Shown here: one piece after another, positions 16,536 to 26,111 of the stretch | Position numbering within the stretch: position 1 is the first letter of the stretch | Layout of the letters: every line of letters begins with the position of its first letter | From: Spirulina sp. | GTDB taxonomy: Bacteria; Cyanobacteriota; Cyanobacteriia; Phormidesmidales; Phormidesmidaceae | Reading direction: 5' to 3' | DNA length: 64,000 bases | Assembly (NCBI GenBank): GCA_044070495.1 | Contig: JBIPSI010000004.1 | Span: 96,001-160,000 of the forward strand | Notes under the pieces: generated by a model | What the model was told of the DNA's origin: nothing | The model's database searches: none | The model's input: only the letters and a program-made list of their open reading frames with translations | Translations under genes and position numbers: made by a program

Positions 16536-17705
<1,170 letters not shown>

Positions 17706-18018: not shown

Positions 18019-18399
18019 ATGGATATGACTTCCGTATCCCACAACCCAACAGCTATTATTCGTACCGAACGAGGATTGTCAATTTCTGGGACACGCATCA
18101 CCCTATACGATGTGATGGACTACCTGATAGCCCAATATCCACCACAGTTTATTCGTTCCCTGTTCGACTTAACAGAGGATCAGATGACTGCGGCTTTAGC
18201 CTACATTGAGGCAAATCGCGCTGAAGTTGATGCAGAATATCAATCCGTTCTGACCCAAGCGGAGGAAAGCCGACGCTATTGGGAAGATCGAAGTCGTGAG
18301 CACCTAGCCCGTGCTGCCAACATACATCCTAATCCGGATCAAGCCGCGCTTTGGGCGAAACTTCAGGCTCAAAAAGCTAGGCATGGGATTGATGCATGA
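18019..18399 (+). CDS. DUF433 family putative antitoxin
   Basis: GLSISGTRITLYDVMDY...AALAYI; ATGA overlap with next gene. Confidence 0.8.
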   Translation: MDMTSVSHNPTAIIRTERGLSISGTRITLYDVMDYLIAQYPPQFIRSLFDLTEDQMTAALAYIEANRAEVDAEYQSVLTQAEESRRYWEDRSREHLARAANIHPNPDQAALWAKLQAQKARHGIDA

Positions 18400-18791
18400 A
18401 CTTTTTGATTGATCACAACTTGGGAGGACATGCTGAGTTGCTATTGGGTAATATTGCGAGTCAAGGTTGGCTAGAACTAATTCCAATTCGCTTTGTTACT
18501 TTTCAAGAAATTGGTTTGCCGATTGATAGTAGCGATCAAAGAGTCTGGCAATTCGCCCAGTTAAATCAGATGATTTTGCTAACGGCAAACCGAAGCATGA
18601 AAGGAGAAGATTCGCTGGAGAAAGTGCTTCGGGAAGAAAATACTCTGAATTCCTTTCCTGTCGTTACCATTGGAGATGCCAATCGTTTTTTGGCCGACCG
18701 CGTCTACCGAAACCGTTGCGCTGACCGTATCCTCGAAATCCTGTTAGAGATTGAAAACTGGATGGGTGTTGGTCGTCTTTTTGTTCCGTAA
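18396..18791 (+). CDS. DUF5615 / PIN-like putative toxin
   Basis: MNFLIDHNL, SSDQRVW, ILLTAN; coupled to DUF433. Confidence 0.75.
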   Translation: MNFLIDHNLGGHAELLLGNIASQGWLELIPIRFVTFQEIGLPIDSSDQRVWQFAQLNQMILLTANRSMKGEDSLEKVLREENTLNSFPVVTIGDANRFLADRVYRNRCADRILEILLEIENWMGVGRLFVP

Positions 18792-18807: not shown

Positions 18808-19665
18808 ATGCCATCCTCCTTCCTCACCCTTCAGAGCCAACACGCCTGCTTTGGCGGCACCGTGGGCTACTACAGCCACTTTTCTAGCCAGTGCCAGTGC
18901 GAAATGCGGTTTGCGGTCTTCATTCCGCCCCAGGCCCAGGCTGGCCCGGTACCCGTGTTGTATTACCTATCGGGGCTAACCTGCACCGAGGAAAACTTTA
19001 CCGCCAAGGCCGGAGCCCAGCGCTATGCGGCGGAGCAAGGGCTGATGCTGGTGGCCCCCGATACCAGCCCCCGTGGGGAGGAAATCCCCGACGAAGCCGA
19101 TGCCTGGGACTTTGGCACCGGGGCCGGGTTCTACGTCAACGCAACCCAAGCCCCCTGGAGCCAGCACTACCGCATGTATAGCTACGTGGTGGAGGAACTG
19201 CCGGAACTGATCGCCGCCAACTTTGCCATAAAACCGGATCGCCAGGGGATTTTTGGCCATTCCATGGGCGGGCACGGAGCCTTAGTCTGTGGTCTGCGGA
19301 ATCCCCAGTTGTTTAAGTCGATTTCGGCCTTTGCCCCCATCGCCGCCCCCAGCCAATGCCCCTGGGGGCAAAAAGCTTTTAGCGGATACCTCGGCCCCGA
19401 TCAAACCCTGTGGCATGGCTACGATGCCAGCCACCTAGTGAAAACCCAACCCCAGCCCGACCGGATGATCCTGATTGACCAGGGCAACGCCGATCCTTTT
19501 TTGGGCCAGGGCCAACTCTTGCCGGAGGTGTTTGAAGCGACCTGCAAGGAAGCAGGACAACCCCTAACCCTGCGAATGCAACCGGGCTACGACCACGGCT
19601 ACTACTTCATTGCCACCTTCATGGCCGACCATATTCGCCACCACGGGGCCATCCTTACGACCTAG
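18808..19665 (+). CDS. fghA: S-formylglutathione hydrolase
   Basis: [21 protein letters not shown]. Confidence 0.95.
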
Positions 19666-19803
19666 GACATTGCGCCCCTGCTTGCCCGCCCCATCCCCAA
19701 TCCTGCCCCATCGATGCTGGAAGTTAGGTGCAGCGATAGTCGCTACGGTGCCGTGGTAGCGGCATGAGGCGCGGGCCATGACCGATTTGGCGGTGCCGCG
19801 TCG

Positions 19804-20264
19804 TTCATGGACGATCCCCAGCATCAGGATGTTGAAATGAACCGAGCCAAACGACCCATTCGTGCGGTCGAGACTCAATGTCCAGGGTTGAGGTATCTGG
19901 CTCCAACTCACCATCGTCCGGGCAATATCATCAAAATCCACCGGAAACTCCCGCAAAAACCGGGTCAGACGCTTGTGGCTCGACTCTGGTTTTGCCCGAT
20001 TGGCAAACACCGACGACAGCTTATCCAGGTTCACCGTCTCCACCCGGAATAGGGCCACCAGAAACAGGGCTAGAAACGTCAGACGGGCACCATGCCACGG
20101 CAGATGAGGGCGCAGGGCCGCTTGAAGTCGGTTAATCTGAGTCATGGAGAGGGTCTAGCTAAGGTTGTGCTAATCTCTAGCTCACCTCCCTCTTCCTCAG
20201 TCTGTCAACCCCTCCACAGGGAAGGCTTTCAGCCCCTCACCCCAAGTTTTGTCCCTGTACCGTG
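19804..20264 (-). mobile_element. Truncated IS4-family element: one end plus the first ~114 aa of the transposase (start 20145)
   Basis: LRPHLPWHGARLTFL...LSLDRT...NILMLGIVH resembles cyanobacterial IS4 transposase N-termini, then similarity ends; likely terminus GGTACAGGGACAAAA near 20247-20264. Confidence 0.8.
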
Positions 20265-20379
20265 GCCCACACCTGGGGTGCCCCCTGAACTGCCGCTTCT
20301 TTAGCAACACACCGTGAGTCATGTAGATGAGCGTAATCATTTGTAGGGTTTGTCAGCTTGATCTCGTCACAATCAGGTA

Positions 20380-20408
20380 TTGACATCTAGATTTTTGTAC
20401 ACTAACTT
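20380..20408 (+). promoter_or_regulatory. Sigma70-type promoter of the RNA-NYN-RNase III locus
   Basis: TTGACA (20380-20385), 17-bp spacer, TAACTT (20403-20408). Confidence 0.65.
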
Positions 20409-20414
20409 TATACC

Positions 20415-20660
20415 AAGCTCTACATTAAAGCGCTAGCGCTTCTGGCCAGCTAGGTTTACAAAGCTGCCGCTTCCAAAATTTGCAGGTAAAGCTGTACAGG
20501 GTGGATGCGACAACTTTGTAAGGTTAGCTGAATCGAAAAATAACTAAAAATTCTGTAGTTAAGTCTACGGAAATTTTAGCTATTCTTCAGTTCAGCCACA
20601 TCATCAGCCGCAAGAAACGCTACAGAAGACGTAGAGCCCGTACTTTATTGGAGGCTCTAA
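20415..20660 (+). ncRNA. Candidate structured RNA/leader with nested stems (no known family recognised)
   Basis: Stems 20417-23/20631-37, 20434-46/20610-22, 20456-75/20502-21, 20527-58/20565-96. Confidence 0.55.
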
Positions 20661-20661
20661 C

Positions 20662-21138
20662 ATGAGTGCTCAAGTTGTTTCAATTCACCGCAATTGTCCT
20701 ACGGTAGCGGTAGCTGTTGATGGCCAAAATGTTGGCCTTTTGAAAAATGGTGAGGCTATTTTGAGGTTTGCATCAGGTTTGGGTAATGTTTCTATTCAAT
20801 GGGCTTACTACAATTATCGAAACCTGAAGCCTCGCCATGAAGCCCGACTACAGGAGCAGGAGTGGCAATGTGTAGATGTGGCAGTTTGTACGAAAAACGA
20901 ACTGGATCATCGAATGATGACGGCGGTGAGAAAGTTGTGTTCCTGTCAACCACCTAATATTTTGGTGATCGTCACCAATGACAAAGACTTTGCTCCCCTC
21001 ATTGAGTATGCCTGTAGTCAGGGAATCAAGGTCTTTGTCATTGGTCGGCGTAATGGGATGAGCAAGGATCTCAAGCGTCTTCTCCCCAATGGCATCGTTT
21101 ATATTGAAGACCTGAAACAACTGCCTTTAGCGAGTTAA
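20662..21138 (+). CDS. NYN-domain (LabA/DUF88, PIN-fold) ribonuclease
   Basis: VAVDGQNV, KNELD, IVTNDKDFAPL, GIKVFVIG; GGAGG RBS. Confidence 0.88.
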   Translation: MSAQVVSIHRNCPTVAVAVDGQNVGLLKNGEAILRFASGLGNVSIQWAYYNYRNLKPRHEARLQEQEWQCVDVAVCTKNELDHRMMTAVRKLCSCQPPNILVIVTNDKDFAPLIEYACSQGIKVFVIGRRNGMSKDLKRLLPNGIVYIEDLKQLPLAS

Positions 21139-21235
21139 CGCGACTTTAGAATGGTCTGACTTTGCCCTTGAGAGCTTCTACAAAATAGACTTCATCAAGG
21201 GTAAAGTCTTTCCAAAGCCCTGTTTAGTATTGATC

Positions 21236-22099
21236 ATGAGAATTCCTGACTTCAAAAATAAAGAACTGCTTCAACAAGCACTGACTCATAGCTCCTATGC
21301 TAGGGAAAATGTCACGACTGACAACGAGCGTCTAGAATTTCTCGGTGACAGTATTATTGAGTTTGTAGTACGTTTTTTGCTTTTTACCCAATATCCAAAG
21401 ATGGATGAGGGCGAAATGTCGAAACGCTCTGATTTAATCGTCGATCAATCTCAATTAGCCGACCTTTCAGTAAAGCTAGGTTTGCCAAATCGTCTGCGAT
21501 TGGGAAGTGGCTCCCAGCAGGAACGTGATAACCCTAGCGTCCAGGCTGACGCCTTTGAAGCCCTGATTGGAGCCTATTTTTTAGATTCTGGCATTAATGC
21601 TGCTTACGATTATGCCAAATCCTTATTTAGCCCATTAATTGCTCAATCTATCAATCTCACGCCTACCGATCCAGTCAGTGCTTTTCAAGAGTATGTACAA
21701 GCTCACTTTGCTGGTCAGCTTCCCGACTATCGAGAGCTTAGCGCTATTGGTCCAGATCATGCCAAAACCTTTGAGATTGCGGTTTATATCAATCATGAGC
21801 GTTACGGTACAGGCAAGGGCAATAGTAAGAAAGAAGCACGAAAGCAAGCGGCCTTGGATGCACTCAATCACCTTCAACCCGATCCCGTAAGCAAATTACA
21901 GGAGTTGGTACTGACTCGTTTTGGCGAACCACCCGAATATCGAGAACTCAGTACGGTAGGTTCCGTACCTAATCAAACATTTGAAATTGGGGTGTATATC
22001 AACCACCAATGCTACGGTGTTGGTAAAGGAAAACGTAAAAGGGAAGCCCGCAAGCAAGCCGCATTAGAAGCAATCAGTCGATTAAAGGCTAAAAAGTAG
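21236..22099 (+). CDS. rnc: Ribonuclease III with two tandem dsRBDs
   Basis: ALTHSSY, NERLEFLGDS, ADAFEALIGA; two dsRBDs DPVS..QE...G.G..K.EARKQAAL. Confidence 0.92.
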   Translation: MRIPDFKNKELLQQALTHSSYARENVTTDNERLEFLGDSIIEFVVRFLLFTQYPKMDEGEMSKRSDLIVDQSQLADLSVKLGLPNRLRLGSGSQQERDNPSVQADAFEALIGAYFLDSGINAAYDYAKSLFSPLIAQSINLTPTDPVSAFQEYVQAHFAGQLPDYRELSAIGPDHAKTFEIAVYINHERYGTGKGNSKKEARKQAALDALNHLQPDPVSKLQELVLTRFGEPPEYRELSTVGSVPNQTFEIGVYINHQCYGVGKGKRKREARKQAALEAISRLKAKK

Positions 22100-22176
22100 A
22101 CTAGCGGCTAGATGGCCTAGCGTTCCACTGCTAAGCTGCCTACACTAAAAGAGCCGTATTCAATAGAACTCACTCT

Positions 22177-23544
22177 ATGACCACCTTTAGCGCACCATTG
22201 CACATCAACTGGGATACCTTCGCCAGTGCCCTGGGTGAGATTGAGGTGGTGCGCGAGCCGGGGCAGGTTGAGAAGCTCTCCAAGGACTACTACCACTTCA
22301 GCCCGGTGCTTCAGGGGCAGTTGGCAGACTATAGGGCGGATTTGGTTGTGCGTCCCAAAACGGAGGCCGAGGTGCTGCAAGTGGCCCAGCGCTGTGTGGC
22401 GGAACGGGTGCCGCTGACGGTGCGAGGTGCGGGGACGGGCAACTACGGCCAGTGCATCCCCTTGGCGGGGGGTGTGGTGCTGGATTTGAGCCTGATGAAT
22501 CAGGTGAAGTGGATGAGGCCGGGGGTGGCGTGCGTGGAACCGGGGGCTAAAATGGCTGCCATTGACCGAATTACAAGGGAAACGGGCTGGGAACTGCGGA
22601 TGGCTCCTTCTACCTACCGGACGGCCACCATTGGCGGCTTTATTGGCGGCGGCAGCGGCGGCATGGGGTCAATTACCTACGGCCAACTGCGGGATCGGGG
22701 CAACCTGAATGCCGTGCGGGTGGTGACGATGGAGGATCAGCCTCGCGTCCTTGAACTACGGGGCGATGCGGTGCAGCAGGTGAACCACGCCTACGGCACC
22801 AACGGCATCATCACCGAGTTGGAGGTGCCCCTGGGGCCAGCCTACCCCTGGGCCGAGACCATTGTGGTGTTTGACGACTTCATGACGGCGGCTCGATTTG
22901 GCCAGGTGCTTGGCGAAGCGGACGGGCTGATTAAAAAGCTGATCACCGTGTTTGCATGGCCTGTGCCGAACTACTTTATGGCGCTCAAATCCTATCTGCC
23001 GGAGGGCAAGGCGGCGGTGTTTGGGATGGTAGCCGAGCCGTCCCTAGAACTATTTGGCGAACTGGTGCGGGAATTTGGCGGTGCCGTAACCTACCAAAAA
23101 TCCGCCCAGGAGGCCAGTAAGGGTACCTTGTTGGTGGAGTTTACCTGGAACCACACCACCCTTCATGCCCGCAGTGTGGATCCAACCATCACCTATCTGC
23201 AAACGCTGTTTCCCTACGATGCCGACCTCAAAGGTGTCGAGCATTTCTACCGCCACTTTGGCGATGAGGTGCTGATGCACCTGGAATTTCTACGCATCGG
23301 GGGGCGGGTTTGTCCCGCAGCGCTGCAACTGGTGCGCTACACCACCGAGGAACGGCTGAACGAGATCATCCGCTACCACGAAGACCGTGGGGCCTTCATC
23401 GCCAACCCCCATACCTATCTGCTCGAAGATGGCGGCATGAAGCAGGTGGATCACGCCCAGGTAGACTTTAAGGCCCAGGTGGATCCCTACGGATTACTCA
23501 ACCCCGGCAAAATGCGCGGCTGGCTAGAACGGCAAACACCGTAG
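22177..23544 (+). CDS. FAD-binding oxidoreductase (GlcD-like)
   Basis: RGAGTGNYG, ATIGGFIGGG, DPYGLLNPGK. Confidence 0.85.
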   Translation: MTTFSAPLHINWDTFASALGEIEVVREPGQVEKLSKDYYHFSPVLQGQLADYRADLVVRPKTEAEVLQVAQRCVAERVPLTVRGAGTGNYGQCIPLAGGVVLDLSLMNQVKWMRPGVACVEPGAKMAAIDRITRETGWELRMAPSTYRTATIGGFIGGGSGGMGSITYGQLRDRGNLNAVRVVTMEDQPRVLELRGDAVQQVNHAYGTNGIITELEVPLGPAYPWAETIVVFDDFMTAARFGQVLGEADGLIKKLITVFAWPVPNYFMALKSYLPEGKAAVFGMVAEPSLELFGELVREFGGAVTYQKSAQEASKGTLLVEFTWNHTTLHARSVDPTITYLQTLFPYDADLKGVEHFYRHFGDEVLMHLEFLRIGGRVCPAALQLVRYTTEERLNEIIRYHEDRGAFIANPHTYLLEDGGMKQVDHAQVDFKAQVDPYGLLNPGKMRGWLERQTP

Positions 23545-24583: not shown

Positions 24584-24767
24584 GGTGCTTGGTAGAAAAT
24601 AGGTCTATGGGTGGCTCTGCCTAGGATATACCGCGCCCCTAGCGGATTTCCAGGACAGCAGCTTCCTATGGCTTTGCTAAACCATAGCCTCCAGCCACAA
24701 AAAATGCAGAACTGATGAGCCATTCTGGGTAGTCTAGAGCGAGGTGATGCTTGCAGGCTCAACGGCG

Positions 24768-26111
24768 ATGGCAAATCAAGAACAGGTCGCTTTGCTAAAG
24801 CAGGGAATTAAGGTTTGGAATGCCTGGAGGGATGGAAATCCTGACGTTGAGATAGATCTTAGATTCGCCGACCTAACCGCCGTCGGCCTAATCGCCGCCA
24901 AACTCAGCTACGCCGACCTCAGCTACGCCGACCTCAGCTACGCCAAACTCAGCTACGCTAACCTCAGCGAGGCCGACCTCAGCTACGCCGACCTCAGCTA
25001 CGCCGACCTCAGCTACGCTAACCTCAGTGAGGCCGACCTCAGCTACGCCAAACTCAGATCCGCCAACCTCAGCGAGGCCAACCTCAGCGAGGCCAACCTC
25101 AGCAAGGCCAACCTCAGCGAGGCCGACCTCAGCGAGGCCAACCTCAGCGAGGCCGACCTCAGCTACGCCGACCTCAATGCGTCTCAGGTACTTGGTGCTA
25201 ATTTTACCCAGGCAACACTCACAGGAGCCTGTATAGCCGACTGGCAAATCGGCATCTCAACCATCCTTAAAGATGTCCAATGTGACTATATTTTTCGCAC
25301 CTACAACTATGAGAGTCAACAATTCTCAGGTCGTCTTCCTATGGATCCTGAAAACCCCTTTGCCCTAGATGAATTTAGTCAACGATTTCAAATTATTGCC
25401 AGTGCCCTAGAAACTATCGACATCACCTTCACCGAGGGTATCGACTGGCAAGCCTTTTTCCAGTCTTTCCAGGAATTACGGCAGCGTTATCCCCAACATA
25501 ATATTGGCATTCAAGGCATTGAGGAGAAGGATGGAGCCTTGATAGTGCGCTTGAAAGTAGAAACAGAAGAGACAGGCGCAGCGCTAGAGGAGCTTAAAGG
25601 CCGGATCGAAACCACCGAGAAGCAGTTATATTCAGTTCAACTCTCATTGCGGGAAGCAGAAGGGCAACTGAAGGTGTACCGAGAGATGATGGGAGTAGTT
25701 CAGACGTTAGTGTTAAGACCTATGGGTGACCAAAATTTCTATGCTCCAGTTGGCAATGTGGCGGGTACCAACCAAGGGCAAATGACAGCCTACATCAACC
25801 AAAATAATGAGGCTATCAGCCAACTCATCGCCACACTTCGGTCTACTGTTCAGGCTTTTCCATCCGAGCAAAAAGACGATGTGTTGATGGAGCTAGACGA
25901 CCTAGAAAGCGACCTCAGCAAGACAGAGAAGCCAGAACCAAAGCGCATCGGTAAGCGACTTCAAAGAATCTTGGCCGCAGGAACTGCCGCTGCCACCCTA
26001 GCAGGAGGTGCCGCTACCTTTACAGGCGATCTCAACGAATTCACCCAAAACGTGCTGGAGTTGGGAGAAAAAATTGGTCTAGATCGAGGTTCGATCCAAG
26101 GCAACCCATAA
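24768..26111 (+). CDS. Pentapeptide repeat protein with C-terminal coiled-coil region
   Basis: A(D/N/K)LS(Y/E) repeats encoded by 15-bp units ~24860-25180; start MANQEQ. Confidence 0.9.
   Translation: MANQEQVALLKQGIKVWNAWRDGNPDVEIDLRFADLTAVGLIAAKLSYADLSYADLSYAKLSYANLSEADLSYADLSYADLSYANLSEADLSYAKLRSANLSEANLSEANLSKANLSEADLSEANLSEADLSYADLNASQVLGANFTQATLTGACIADWQIGISTILKDVQCDYIFRTYNYESQQFSGRLPMDPENPFALDEFSQRFQIIASALETIDITFTEGIDWQAFFQSFQELRQRYPQHNIGIQGIEEKDGALIVRLKVETEETGAALEELKGRIETTEKQLYSVQLSLREAEGQLKVYREMMGVVQTLVLRPMGDQNFYAPVGNVAGTNQGQMTAYINQNNEAISQLIATLRSTVQAFPSEQKDDVLMELDDLESDLSKTEKPEPKRIGKRLQRILAAGTAAATLAGGAATFTGDLNEFTQNVLELGEKIGLDRGSIQGNP

Follow-up and report, generated by a model that had tools for sequence, protein, structure and literature searches.

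A low-GC block at positions 20380-22099 of a 64,000-nucleotide stretch of the Spirulina sp. genome (contig JBIPSI010000004.1, positions 96,001 to 160,000; hereafter the window) carries a promoter, a leader RNA, the gene of an NYN-domain nuclease and an RNase III gene (rnc) whose product has two double-stranded RNA-binding domains (dsRBDs). The structured RNA, the NYN gene and rnc share one orientation as a single module on the + strand, and the leader is a conserved, covarying RNA element whose long hairpin follows NYN and not rnc. Sequence comparison places the locus in a conserved cyanobacterial operon family and indicates that promoter, leader, NYN and rnc have been exchanged as a unit among related species, replacing the resident rnc. 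To account for this arrangement we propose that the module is one transcription unit in which RNase III would cut the leader and so gate the expression of both NYN and rnc, an rncO-type feedback tied to NYN, and we consider the chances of this proposal to be about even.

A first-pass annotation, made from the sequence alone, had listed a promoter, leader, NYN gene, hairpin, RNase III gene and insertion sequence (IS) remnant, and each was found where it had been placed. The features are as follows, with lengths in nucleotides (nt), base pairs (bp) or amino acids (aa) and with structures taken in part from the minimum free energy (MFE) fold.

20380-20408, + strand: predicted sigma-70-type promoter, -35 box TTGACA (20380-20385), 17-nt spacer, -10 box TAACTT (20403-20408); read from the sequence
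20417-20446, + strand: 5' strand of P1, a long-range closing helix, with the core GCUCUAC at 20417-20423 (S1); MFE structure
20447-20530, + strand: hairpin P2, lower stem of 24 bp (20447-20470 with 20507-20530) plus an upper stem; covariation and covariance model
20530-20593, + strand: hairpin P3, apical stem 20551-20572, then AUUUU; MFE structure, terminator-like by scan
20607-20660, + strand: 3' strand of P1 at 20607-20637 (core GUAGAGC, S2), then the Shine-Dalgarno region GGAGGCUCU (S3); MFE structure and covariation
20662-21138, + strand: NYN-domain nuclease gene, 158 aa; Pfam NYN (PF01936)
21158-21208, + strand: intercistronic hairpin of 17 bp without a U-tract; fold
21236-22099, + strand: RNase III gene, 287 aa from the ATG at 21236, with an in-frame TTG at 21230 (289 aa); Pfam and NCBIfam
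about 21257-21622, 21671-21874 and 21881-22084, + strand: catalytic domain, dsRBD1 and dsRBD2 of RNase III
19564-20145, - strand: remnant of an IS4-family transposase, N-terminal fragment; NF033591, E = 9e-13, profile positions 1-83 of 340

Conserved structure of the leader RNA

The leader occupies about 220-245 nt ahead of NYN and is non-coding, no + strand open reading frame (ORF) of at least 20 aa being found in 20380-20661. The fold of 20405-20675 had a free energy of -85.5 kcal/mol (z = -4.57), a stability equalled by 0 of 200 shuffled sequences. When 10 related leaders were aligned, both promoter hexamers stood in register and the lower stem of P2 was paired in 87.9% of 240 cells, compared with 24-38% when the partner strand was slid; compensatory changes were found at 13 of its 24 pairs, and the covariation score was reached by 0 of 500 shuffles. 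Likewise, the 7-bp core of P1, which links the predicted 5' end of the transcript to the strand just 5' of the ribosome-binding site, was paired in 89.4% of cells as against 12-54% when slid, with compensatory changes at 3 of the 7 pairs. A second hairpin is also present in the related leaders, where its sequence is not conserved. The multi-stem region that had been suggested to begin at the predicted transcription start, and the conserved structure upstream of NYN that had been named as a check on it, are thus well supported by fold stability and by the covariation of P1 and P2. In addition, inspection by eye showed S2 to be complementary to S3 in 10 of 11 leaders; in those of genomes G054 and G080 some of the pairs have changed. 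S2 could therefore pair with S3 instead of S1, which would make the leader a candidate three-strand switch.

A covariance model built from P2 (R1) gave the window hairpin a sense-strand score of 82.6 bits, compared with 51.8 bits for the antisense strand. Among 151 genomes of the order, R1 found exactly one site per genome in 11, all of which carry NYN, with sense scores of 64-86 bits and antisense scores of 36-56 bits, the sense strand being ahead by about 30 bits; no match was obtained in the 140 order genomes without NYN. The training set of R1 did not include the leaders L010 (G074, where the contig ends and the 5' arm is missing) and L019 (G076, which has no upstream sequence), and G076 was nevertheless matched, its NYN being split over two contig ends. 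Of the leader alignments, A1 contained L010, L019 was in neither, and L020 (G104), which has a different 50-bp hairpin, was kept out of both A1 and A6. In the genome of the window (G000; other G-labels denote comparison genomes and L-labels fetched loci) the leader is single-copy, and its interpretation as a repeat element was rejected.

Comparison with Rfam 15, a check proposed in the first-pass annotation, gave no family match for the window or for the leaders of 11 related loci, only sub-threshold noise from miRNA precursors. The likeness to the RNA of type III toxin-antitoxin (TA) systems that had been entertained at first was not supported, as Tandem Repeats Finder (minimum score 30) returned 0 rows for 20200-22200.

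The NYN protein and its linkage to rnc

The NYN protein matched the Pfam family with E = 8e-14 (52.8 bits, cut-off 24.2). Its class membership was tried against PF01936 and the LabA-like/COG1432 branch; its score against TIGR00288, 27.7 bits, lies far below the cut-off of 178 and the protein is therefore not that equivalog. The motifs DGQN, KNELD and NDKDF can be read in the translation, D20, Q22, N23, N79, D82, D107 and D109 are invariant in 12 homologues, and the acidic cluster D20, D82, D107 and D109 is invariant across 15 sequences, in agreement with the intact acidic motifs described before. An AlphaFold2 (AF2) model (pLDDT 86.7) found 2QIP and the NYN domain of MARF1 as its top Foldseek matches (TM 0.74-0.81), so that the protein is predicted by the model to have the NYN, PIN-like alpha/beta fold, and we regard it as a predicted endoribonuclease. 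Close homologues are rare, with 8 clusters in a collection of 5.8 billion proteins; at 50% identity and E <= 1e-30, 53 clusters were found among 1.84 billion representatives. A search with the NYN profile found no NYN-RNase III fusion among longer proteins, which is weak evidence, and the longer NYN proteins that were found (509-543 aa) carry unknown C-terminal parts.

A good NYN homologue is present in 13 of 173 genomes of the window's order, and in 9 of these 13 loci rnc lies directly downstream. The NYN genes of G047, G033 and G104 have no adjacent rnc, and one further contig ends too early. Within the genus, 7 of 52 other genomes have NYN, in all 7 with rnc directly downstream on the same strand. 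The same order of genes was found in 6 further cyanobacterial genera and in 3 loci of Planctomycetes with overlapping reading frames. Among 300 evenly sampled cyanobacterial genomes, rnc adjoined NYN in 19 of the 20 loci that passed the subfamily threshold (E <= 5e-31), compared with 0 of 9 loci with weaker NYN matches, and in the genus g21 NYN stood upstream of rnc in all 30 fetched loci, from 41 genomes. The linkage that the first-pass annotation had named as a check therefore extends well beyond the window, and the window locus can be assigned, on the strength of these sequence comparisons, to a conserved cyanobacterial operon family in which NYN and rnc are probably co-transcribed. Just 3' of rnc, a c-di-AMP riboswitch (RF00379) was observed in two unrelated NYN-rnc loci, L068 (4577-4835, 57.9 bits) and L109 (3295-3465, 37.3 bits, the match meeting the end of the locus).

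The hairpin travels with NYN

Long hairpins are also found upstream of NYN in other cyanobacteria, where the folds reach z values as low as -16 and an unbranched hairpin of 50-116 bp is present in 17 of 26 leaders. The base of these hairpins, GUCU(C/U)AG...CU(G/A)AGAC, is conserved in 18 of the 26, and the sense strand is the more stable in 20. The interior is not conserved in sequence, the sequence before the start codon is. R1 found 0 of these 26 GUCUCAG-type leaders; since the model is blind to them, we treat the two leader types as analogous and do not claim homology. To our knowledge, the leader hairpins of NYN are among the longest met in bacterial mRNA leaders.

The distribution of the hairpin follows that of NYN. 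R1 had 0 matches in 21 loci with rnc but no NYN (solo rnc), and the solo rnc genes of the genus, which are separated from a divergently oriented recF by about 70 nt, lack such a leader element. Conversely, NYN genes without an adjacent rnc keep the hairpin (G047, G033 and L106).

A further indication comes from the loci in which another protein is found beside rnc. In 6 genomes of g21 that have no NYN, the slot held by NYN in 30 relatives is taken by a HEPN_Swt1-RNase III-dsRBD fusion of 400-404 aa directly upstream of rnc, and HEPN-type and NYN-type rnc are only 56-57% identical within the genus. Seven HEPN-fusion loci were fetched (L170-L176, from G320, G177, G490, G487, G388, G497 and G477); the fusion is followed by rnc in 6 of them, the stretch from G487 showing the fusion only. 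None of the 7 has a long leader hairpin, the values being 13-21 bp. Both partners occur together in a metagenome-assembled genome of Oscillatoriales, in which a HEPN_Swt1-RNase III-dsRBD fusion (404 aa), an NYN protein (509 aa, with a long unknown C-terminal part) and a standard rnc (228 aa) are encoded one after another on one strand (L069:3368-7335). Such HEPN-RNase III fusions were termed defence-type 'two-headed RNases' by Anantharaman et al. 2013 (PMC3710099).

The RNase III gene and its second dsRBD

The window RNase III scored 246.3 bits against TIGR02191, the bacterial class 1 RNase III family (cut-off 166.25), and contains ERLEFLGD and DAFEAL; 36 sequences show no variation in the ERLEFLGD block or in the E and D of the DAFEAL block. 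It departs from the one-dsRBD layout of class 1 enzymes in having two dsrm stretches. Both the intact catalytic motifs and the double dsRBD of the first-pass annotation are confirmed, as is its intercistronic hairpin at 21158-21208. Hairpins of 13-17 bp occupy the spacer between NYN and rnc in 8 of 9 related loci.

The two dsRBDs are 59% identical to each other, and in the close group the two-dsRBD form is confined to G000, G101, G080 and G074. The relatives have a single dsRBD that is orthologous to dsRBD1 (70-75% identity), and dsRBD2 (47-60%) evolves faster. The second dsRBD is a tandem duplication, and the enzyme thus a lineage-specific variant. Its explanation as a recombination scar of the resident rnc was rejected, as dsRBD1 is the orthologue and dsRBD2 the divergent copy. 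A separate two-dsRBD form exists in Pseudanabaena (P0050 and P0057, both scanned). P0050, P0051, P0057, P0067 and P0071 (295 aa; P0057 is named Pseudanabaena) represent a second lineage of bacterial RNase III and are 45-48% identical to the window enzyme over 97% of its length. In another protein, from a metagenome (P0075, 486 aa), an N-terminal part with 52% identity to the window RNase III, comprising the RNase III domain and a dsRBD, is joined to a C-terminal helical domain of the NACHT type (PF22727).

G000 has two further RNase III-family genes, a full-length one on contig C21 (233 aa) and one without a dsRBD on contig C10 (208 aa), and these three genes agree with the usual cyanobacterial set as given in a 2022 review (PMC10989914). 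The protein encoded on C10 (G000:C10:117475-120858; L002:1324-1950, - strand) has a Cys-rich C-terminal tail and may be mini-III-like. The first-pass annotation had reasoned that its module would be refuted if this were the sole housekeeping rnc. It is not, since the genome has the two other family members; the cassette rnc is nevertheless the only G000 gene orthologous to the rnc that 42 of the 52 other genus members carry. Of its four refuting conditions, the three open to sequence comparison (no linkage in other genomes, no conserved upstream structure, a sole rnc) thus did not hold.

Exchange of the cassette among related species

The GC content of the block is 0.436, compared with 0.567 for the genome; when the genome was divided into 8670 windows of 1.8 kb, this value ranked among the lowest 1.9%. 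Together with the IS4 transposase fragment to its left this corresponds to the AT-rich patch beside an IS remnant noted before. The DNA shared by G000 and G101 begins precisely at 20380, the first position of the predicted -35 box, which marks the left edge of the cassette. Upstream of it the genes are not the same in G000, G101 and G071, and the IS4 remnant, which is context only, is not at the corresponding position in G101 or G071.

The usual arrangement in the genus is recF on the - strand followed by rnc and a gene for an NAD-binding protein, with an rnc GC content of 0.52-0.65; in loci of the genus with NYN, the GC content of NYN and rnc is 0.38-0.51 for both. The cassette of G000 lies away from this usual recF/rnc site. 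In G062 the 5' end of the native rnc survives as a remnant, with 91% identity to the G077 gene, and a foreign recF fragment lies upstream of leader, NYN and rnc; the full rnc of G062 is only 68% identical to that of G077, as opposed to 91% for the flanking gene. Similarly, the rnc genes of G054 and G076 are 94% identical with a flank of 84%, and G000 and G071 share 90% identity in the flank as against 61% in NYN and 70% in rnc. In the rnc tree the NYN label changes about four times, and the NYN-linked alleles form two clades within the genus. The mismatches between cassette and flanks, the remnant in G062 and the border at the -35 box indicate that the cassette moves as a unit and that promoter, leader, NYN and rnc have in this way replaced the resident rnc in related species. 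In low-GC cyanobacteria the composition of rnc does not differ from that of the flanking DNA, NYN alone being AT-richer. No phage copy of the cassette and no real plasmid copy were found, only two remote matches on Vibrio plasmids, and the idea of a phage or plasmid cargo was rejected.

The cassette of G062 is part of a 4.7-kb low-GC island (L138:8500-13200) between glutamate-synthase-like genes and the NAD-binding gene, which also contains a DnaJ-domain ORF (189 aa), an ORF of an unknown family (337 aa), the rnc remnant and the recF fragment. In the window, two overlapping small ORFs with DUF433 (126 aa) and a DUF5615 PIN-like domain (131 aa) lie in a lower-GC patch (18019-18791, + strand) between an alcohol dehydrogenase-like ORF (16596-17705, labelled without a Pfam scan) and an esterase gene (18808-19665), and resemble a TA pair. 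On the other side, a 455-aa protein (24744-26111, + strand) has a long run of pentapeptide-type repeats (ADLSY/ANLSE), with a mirror repeat ORF on the opposite strand.

Proposed mechanism and alternative explanations

In the proposed feedback, promoter, leader, NYN gene, intercistronic hairpin and rnc would constitute a predicted single unit in which P2, with at least 24 bp here, would be long enough to serve as an RNase III substrate. As long as the leader is intact, P1 would sequester S2 and the NYN ribosome-binding site would be open. Cleavage of P2 by RNase III would separate S1 from S2, upon which the freed S2 would close the ribosome-binding site and the new 5' end would open the mRNA to decay, so that the output of NYN and of the co-transcribed rnc would fall with rising RNase III activity. 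The two nucleases, one cutting double-stranded and one cutting single-stranded RNA, would then act as a pair. Co-transcription, cleavage by RNase III, the polarity of the switch and the activity and targets of NYN are all putative.

Several observations weigh against this proposal. The promoter at 20380-20408 was not called by a consensus scan, because its weak -10 box, TAACTT, fits TATAAT at just 3 of 6 positions. The complementarity of S2 and S3 was judged by eye, and the five closest sequences differ by wobble changes only. By the longest-hairpin measure, which is crude, the P2 of the close group (28-41 bp) falls within the background, random genome windows having a median of 18 and a 95th percentile of 31 and the upstream regions of solo rnc a maximum of 31 (L063, with just 190 nt upstream, was left out of this solo-rnc fold control); as this statistic fails to separate P2, support for the hairpin comes from covariation and the covariance model. 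Moreover, when the 350 nt preceding NYN were folded, a sense strand more stable than the antisense strand was obtained in just 6 of 11 loci of the close group. A hairpin serving only the autoregulation of rnc would also be expected to stay with solo rnc, which it does not, and the NYN-rnc pairs of Planctomycetes have no consistent long leader hairpin.

The attachment of the hairpin to NYN rather than to rnc would also fit a role of NYN as a toxin guarded by RNase III, in a manner similar to type V TA or abortive infection systems. Cleavage of the leader would silence NYN, and a loss of RNase III, or its block or titration by a phage inhibitor or viral double-stranded RNA, would free NYN and bring about growth arrest. 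Patchy, accessory occurrence in the genus and among the 300 sampled cyanobacteria, the AT-richness of NYN relative to its surroundings wherever examined, a history of the cassette decoupled from its flanks with the native rnc remnant left in G062, and the neighbouring DUF433/DUF5615 pair and IS remnant are all in line with such a role, as are the 6 g21 genomes with the HEPN fusion in the NYN slot and the locus L069 with both, given the defence-type reading of these fusions in PMC3710099. In Bacillus subtilis, according to PMC10989914, RNase III is essential only through its silencing of prophage toxin genes. If NYN were guarded in this way, NYN and HEPN heads could stand in for each other as effectors, and recombination at the rnc locus would exchange cassette alleles between species. 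However, the pair is nearly universal in g21, where a core function fits better, the composition of rnc equals that of the flanks in low-GC cyanobacteria, and no copy was seen in phages or, apart from the two remote Vibrio matches, on plasmids. Furthermore, any cellular RNase III could act as the antidote, and addiction would therefore not need the linkage. A comparison with PADLOC-DB 2.0, which the antiphage idea of the first-pass annotation called for, lent it little: NYN gave one weak partial match (PDLC01154, E = 1.3e-5, residues 95-152, 58 residues), and rnc and three neighbouring proteins had none. A defence or TA role for the module is thus possible but unsupported, and we consider the guarding of NYN by RNase III a tentative reading with a clearly minor share of the probability.

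Another explanation would regard NYN and rnc as ordinary housekeeping RNA-processing genes sharing an operon, the hairpin being a stabiliser, an upstream terminator or a repeat that is not under RNase III control. The pairing recurs in two phyla, with overlapping genes in Planctomycetes, as would be expected of co-working housekeeping enzymes, P3 is terminator-like, and bacterial NYN genes are tied by neighbourhood to tRNA and rRNA maturation genes in the PIN-superfamily catalogue (PMC5499597). But the hairpin is covarying, strand-asymmetric and single-copy and is found upstream of NYN only; it lies 3' of a conserved promoter and not at the end of the upstream gene, the upstream genes being variable. 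P1 and the alternative pairing at the ribosome-binding site suggest translational control, and the patchy distribution and horizontal exchange of alleles are likewise unexpected for housekeeping neighbours, so that we consider this explanation unlikely.

Even less probable is a selfish cassette in which NYN acts as a homing-type DNase that cuts cassette-free rnc alleles and thereby copies itself with the linked rnc. Its location at the rnc locus, the displacement of the native gene with the 5' remnant in G062, the matching of the rnc allele to the upstream partner (56-57% identity between NYN- and HEPN-type rnc in one genus) and the higher identity of rnc than of the flank between G054 and G076 would agree with homing, but the nearest folds of the modelled protein are RNA-acting NYN domains, homing would not require a conserved leader RNA that contains G-U pairs, in other cyanobacteria the pair is old and has a native composition, and the G000 copy is off the usual recF/rnc site of the genus. 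It is similarly very improbable that the long leader hairpin is a precursor from which RNase III and NYN produce trans-acting small RNAs, since in spite of the weak, sub-threshold miRNA-precursor matches of the 50-116 bp hairpins in Rfam and a hairpin base conserved like a processing signal, the loci contain no Argonaute-like or other effector gene and the interior of the hairpin is not conserved in sequence.

Significance

No description of an NYN-rnc operon or of its leader was found in the literature searched (subscription-only papers, including the original 2006 NYN paper, being outside reach). The PIN-superfamily catalogue lists, in its accessible part, other NYN neighbourhoods and not rnc (PMC5499597), and NYN is mentioned 0 times in the 2022 review (PMC10989914). 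The module, which would combine RNase III leader feedback with a two-nuclease RNA module, therefore appears to be undescribed. Cyanobacteria have two or three homologues of RNase III, and little is understood of the part that each of them plays; the module gives one of these paralogues a conserved candidate partner nuclease. Its leader adds a large, covarying candidate cis-regulatory RNA outside Rfam, and under the switch model RNase III activity may gate the translation of a second RNase. If instead the module functions in conflict, it would represent a defence logic guarding a core RNA enzyme. Finally, a bacterial RNase III with two dsRBDs is unusual in itself.

Comparison with known systems

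The closest parallel to the proposed feedback is rncO. The RNase III of Escherichia coli reportedly autoregulates its own operon through cleavage of a leader hairpin, and the Streptomyces enzyme is said to do the same. In these systems (rnc-era-recO in E. coli, absB in Streptomyces), the leader hairpin of an RNase III-encoding operon measures at least two helical turns, and control extends to the leading gene or genes of the operon as well as to rnc. The window module would be similar in both respects, with a stable leader hairpin in the range of about 20 bp or longer (24 bp in P2). In contrast to rncO, the hairpin of the window family does not accompany rnc, as the solo-rnc loci without R1 matches demonstrate, and goes with NYN; it reaches 50-116 bp in most other cyanobacteria, and in the window it is embedded in a candidate three-strand switch over the ribosome-binding site.

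In Bacillus, genes of an RNase III-family enzyme (mini-III) and of an NYN protein (YacP/Rae1) also share an operon. This pair differs from that of the window in that mini-III is without a dsRBD and the NYN protein belongs to the YacP subfamily, and we know of no long leader hairpin at that locus. In type V TA systems (GhoT/GhoS), a small membrane peptide, GhoT, is paired with GhoS, a dedicated sequence-specific RNase. The window module would resemble these systems if the linked ribonuclease neutralised its partner by cutting the mRNA and not by protein binding, but the candidate antidote is a general RNase III, the candidate toxin is an NYN RNase and the gene of this candidate toxin comes first. 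With type III TA systems of the ToxIN kind the module shares a structured non-coding RNA just upstream of a ribonuclease gene under one promoter. It differs from them in the absence of tandem repeats, in that its RNA is one leader of several helices, continuous with the ribosome-binding site, and, as far as the modelled structure indicates, in a nuclease fold that is not of the ToxN/AbiE type. The cyanobacterial HEPN 'two-headed RNases' of PMC3710099 likewise add a second nuclease, of the single-stranded RNA type, to RNase III and a dsRBD. In the window, however, the NYN nuclease is a separate polypeptide and is preceded by a long leader hairpin.

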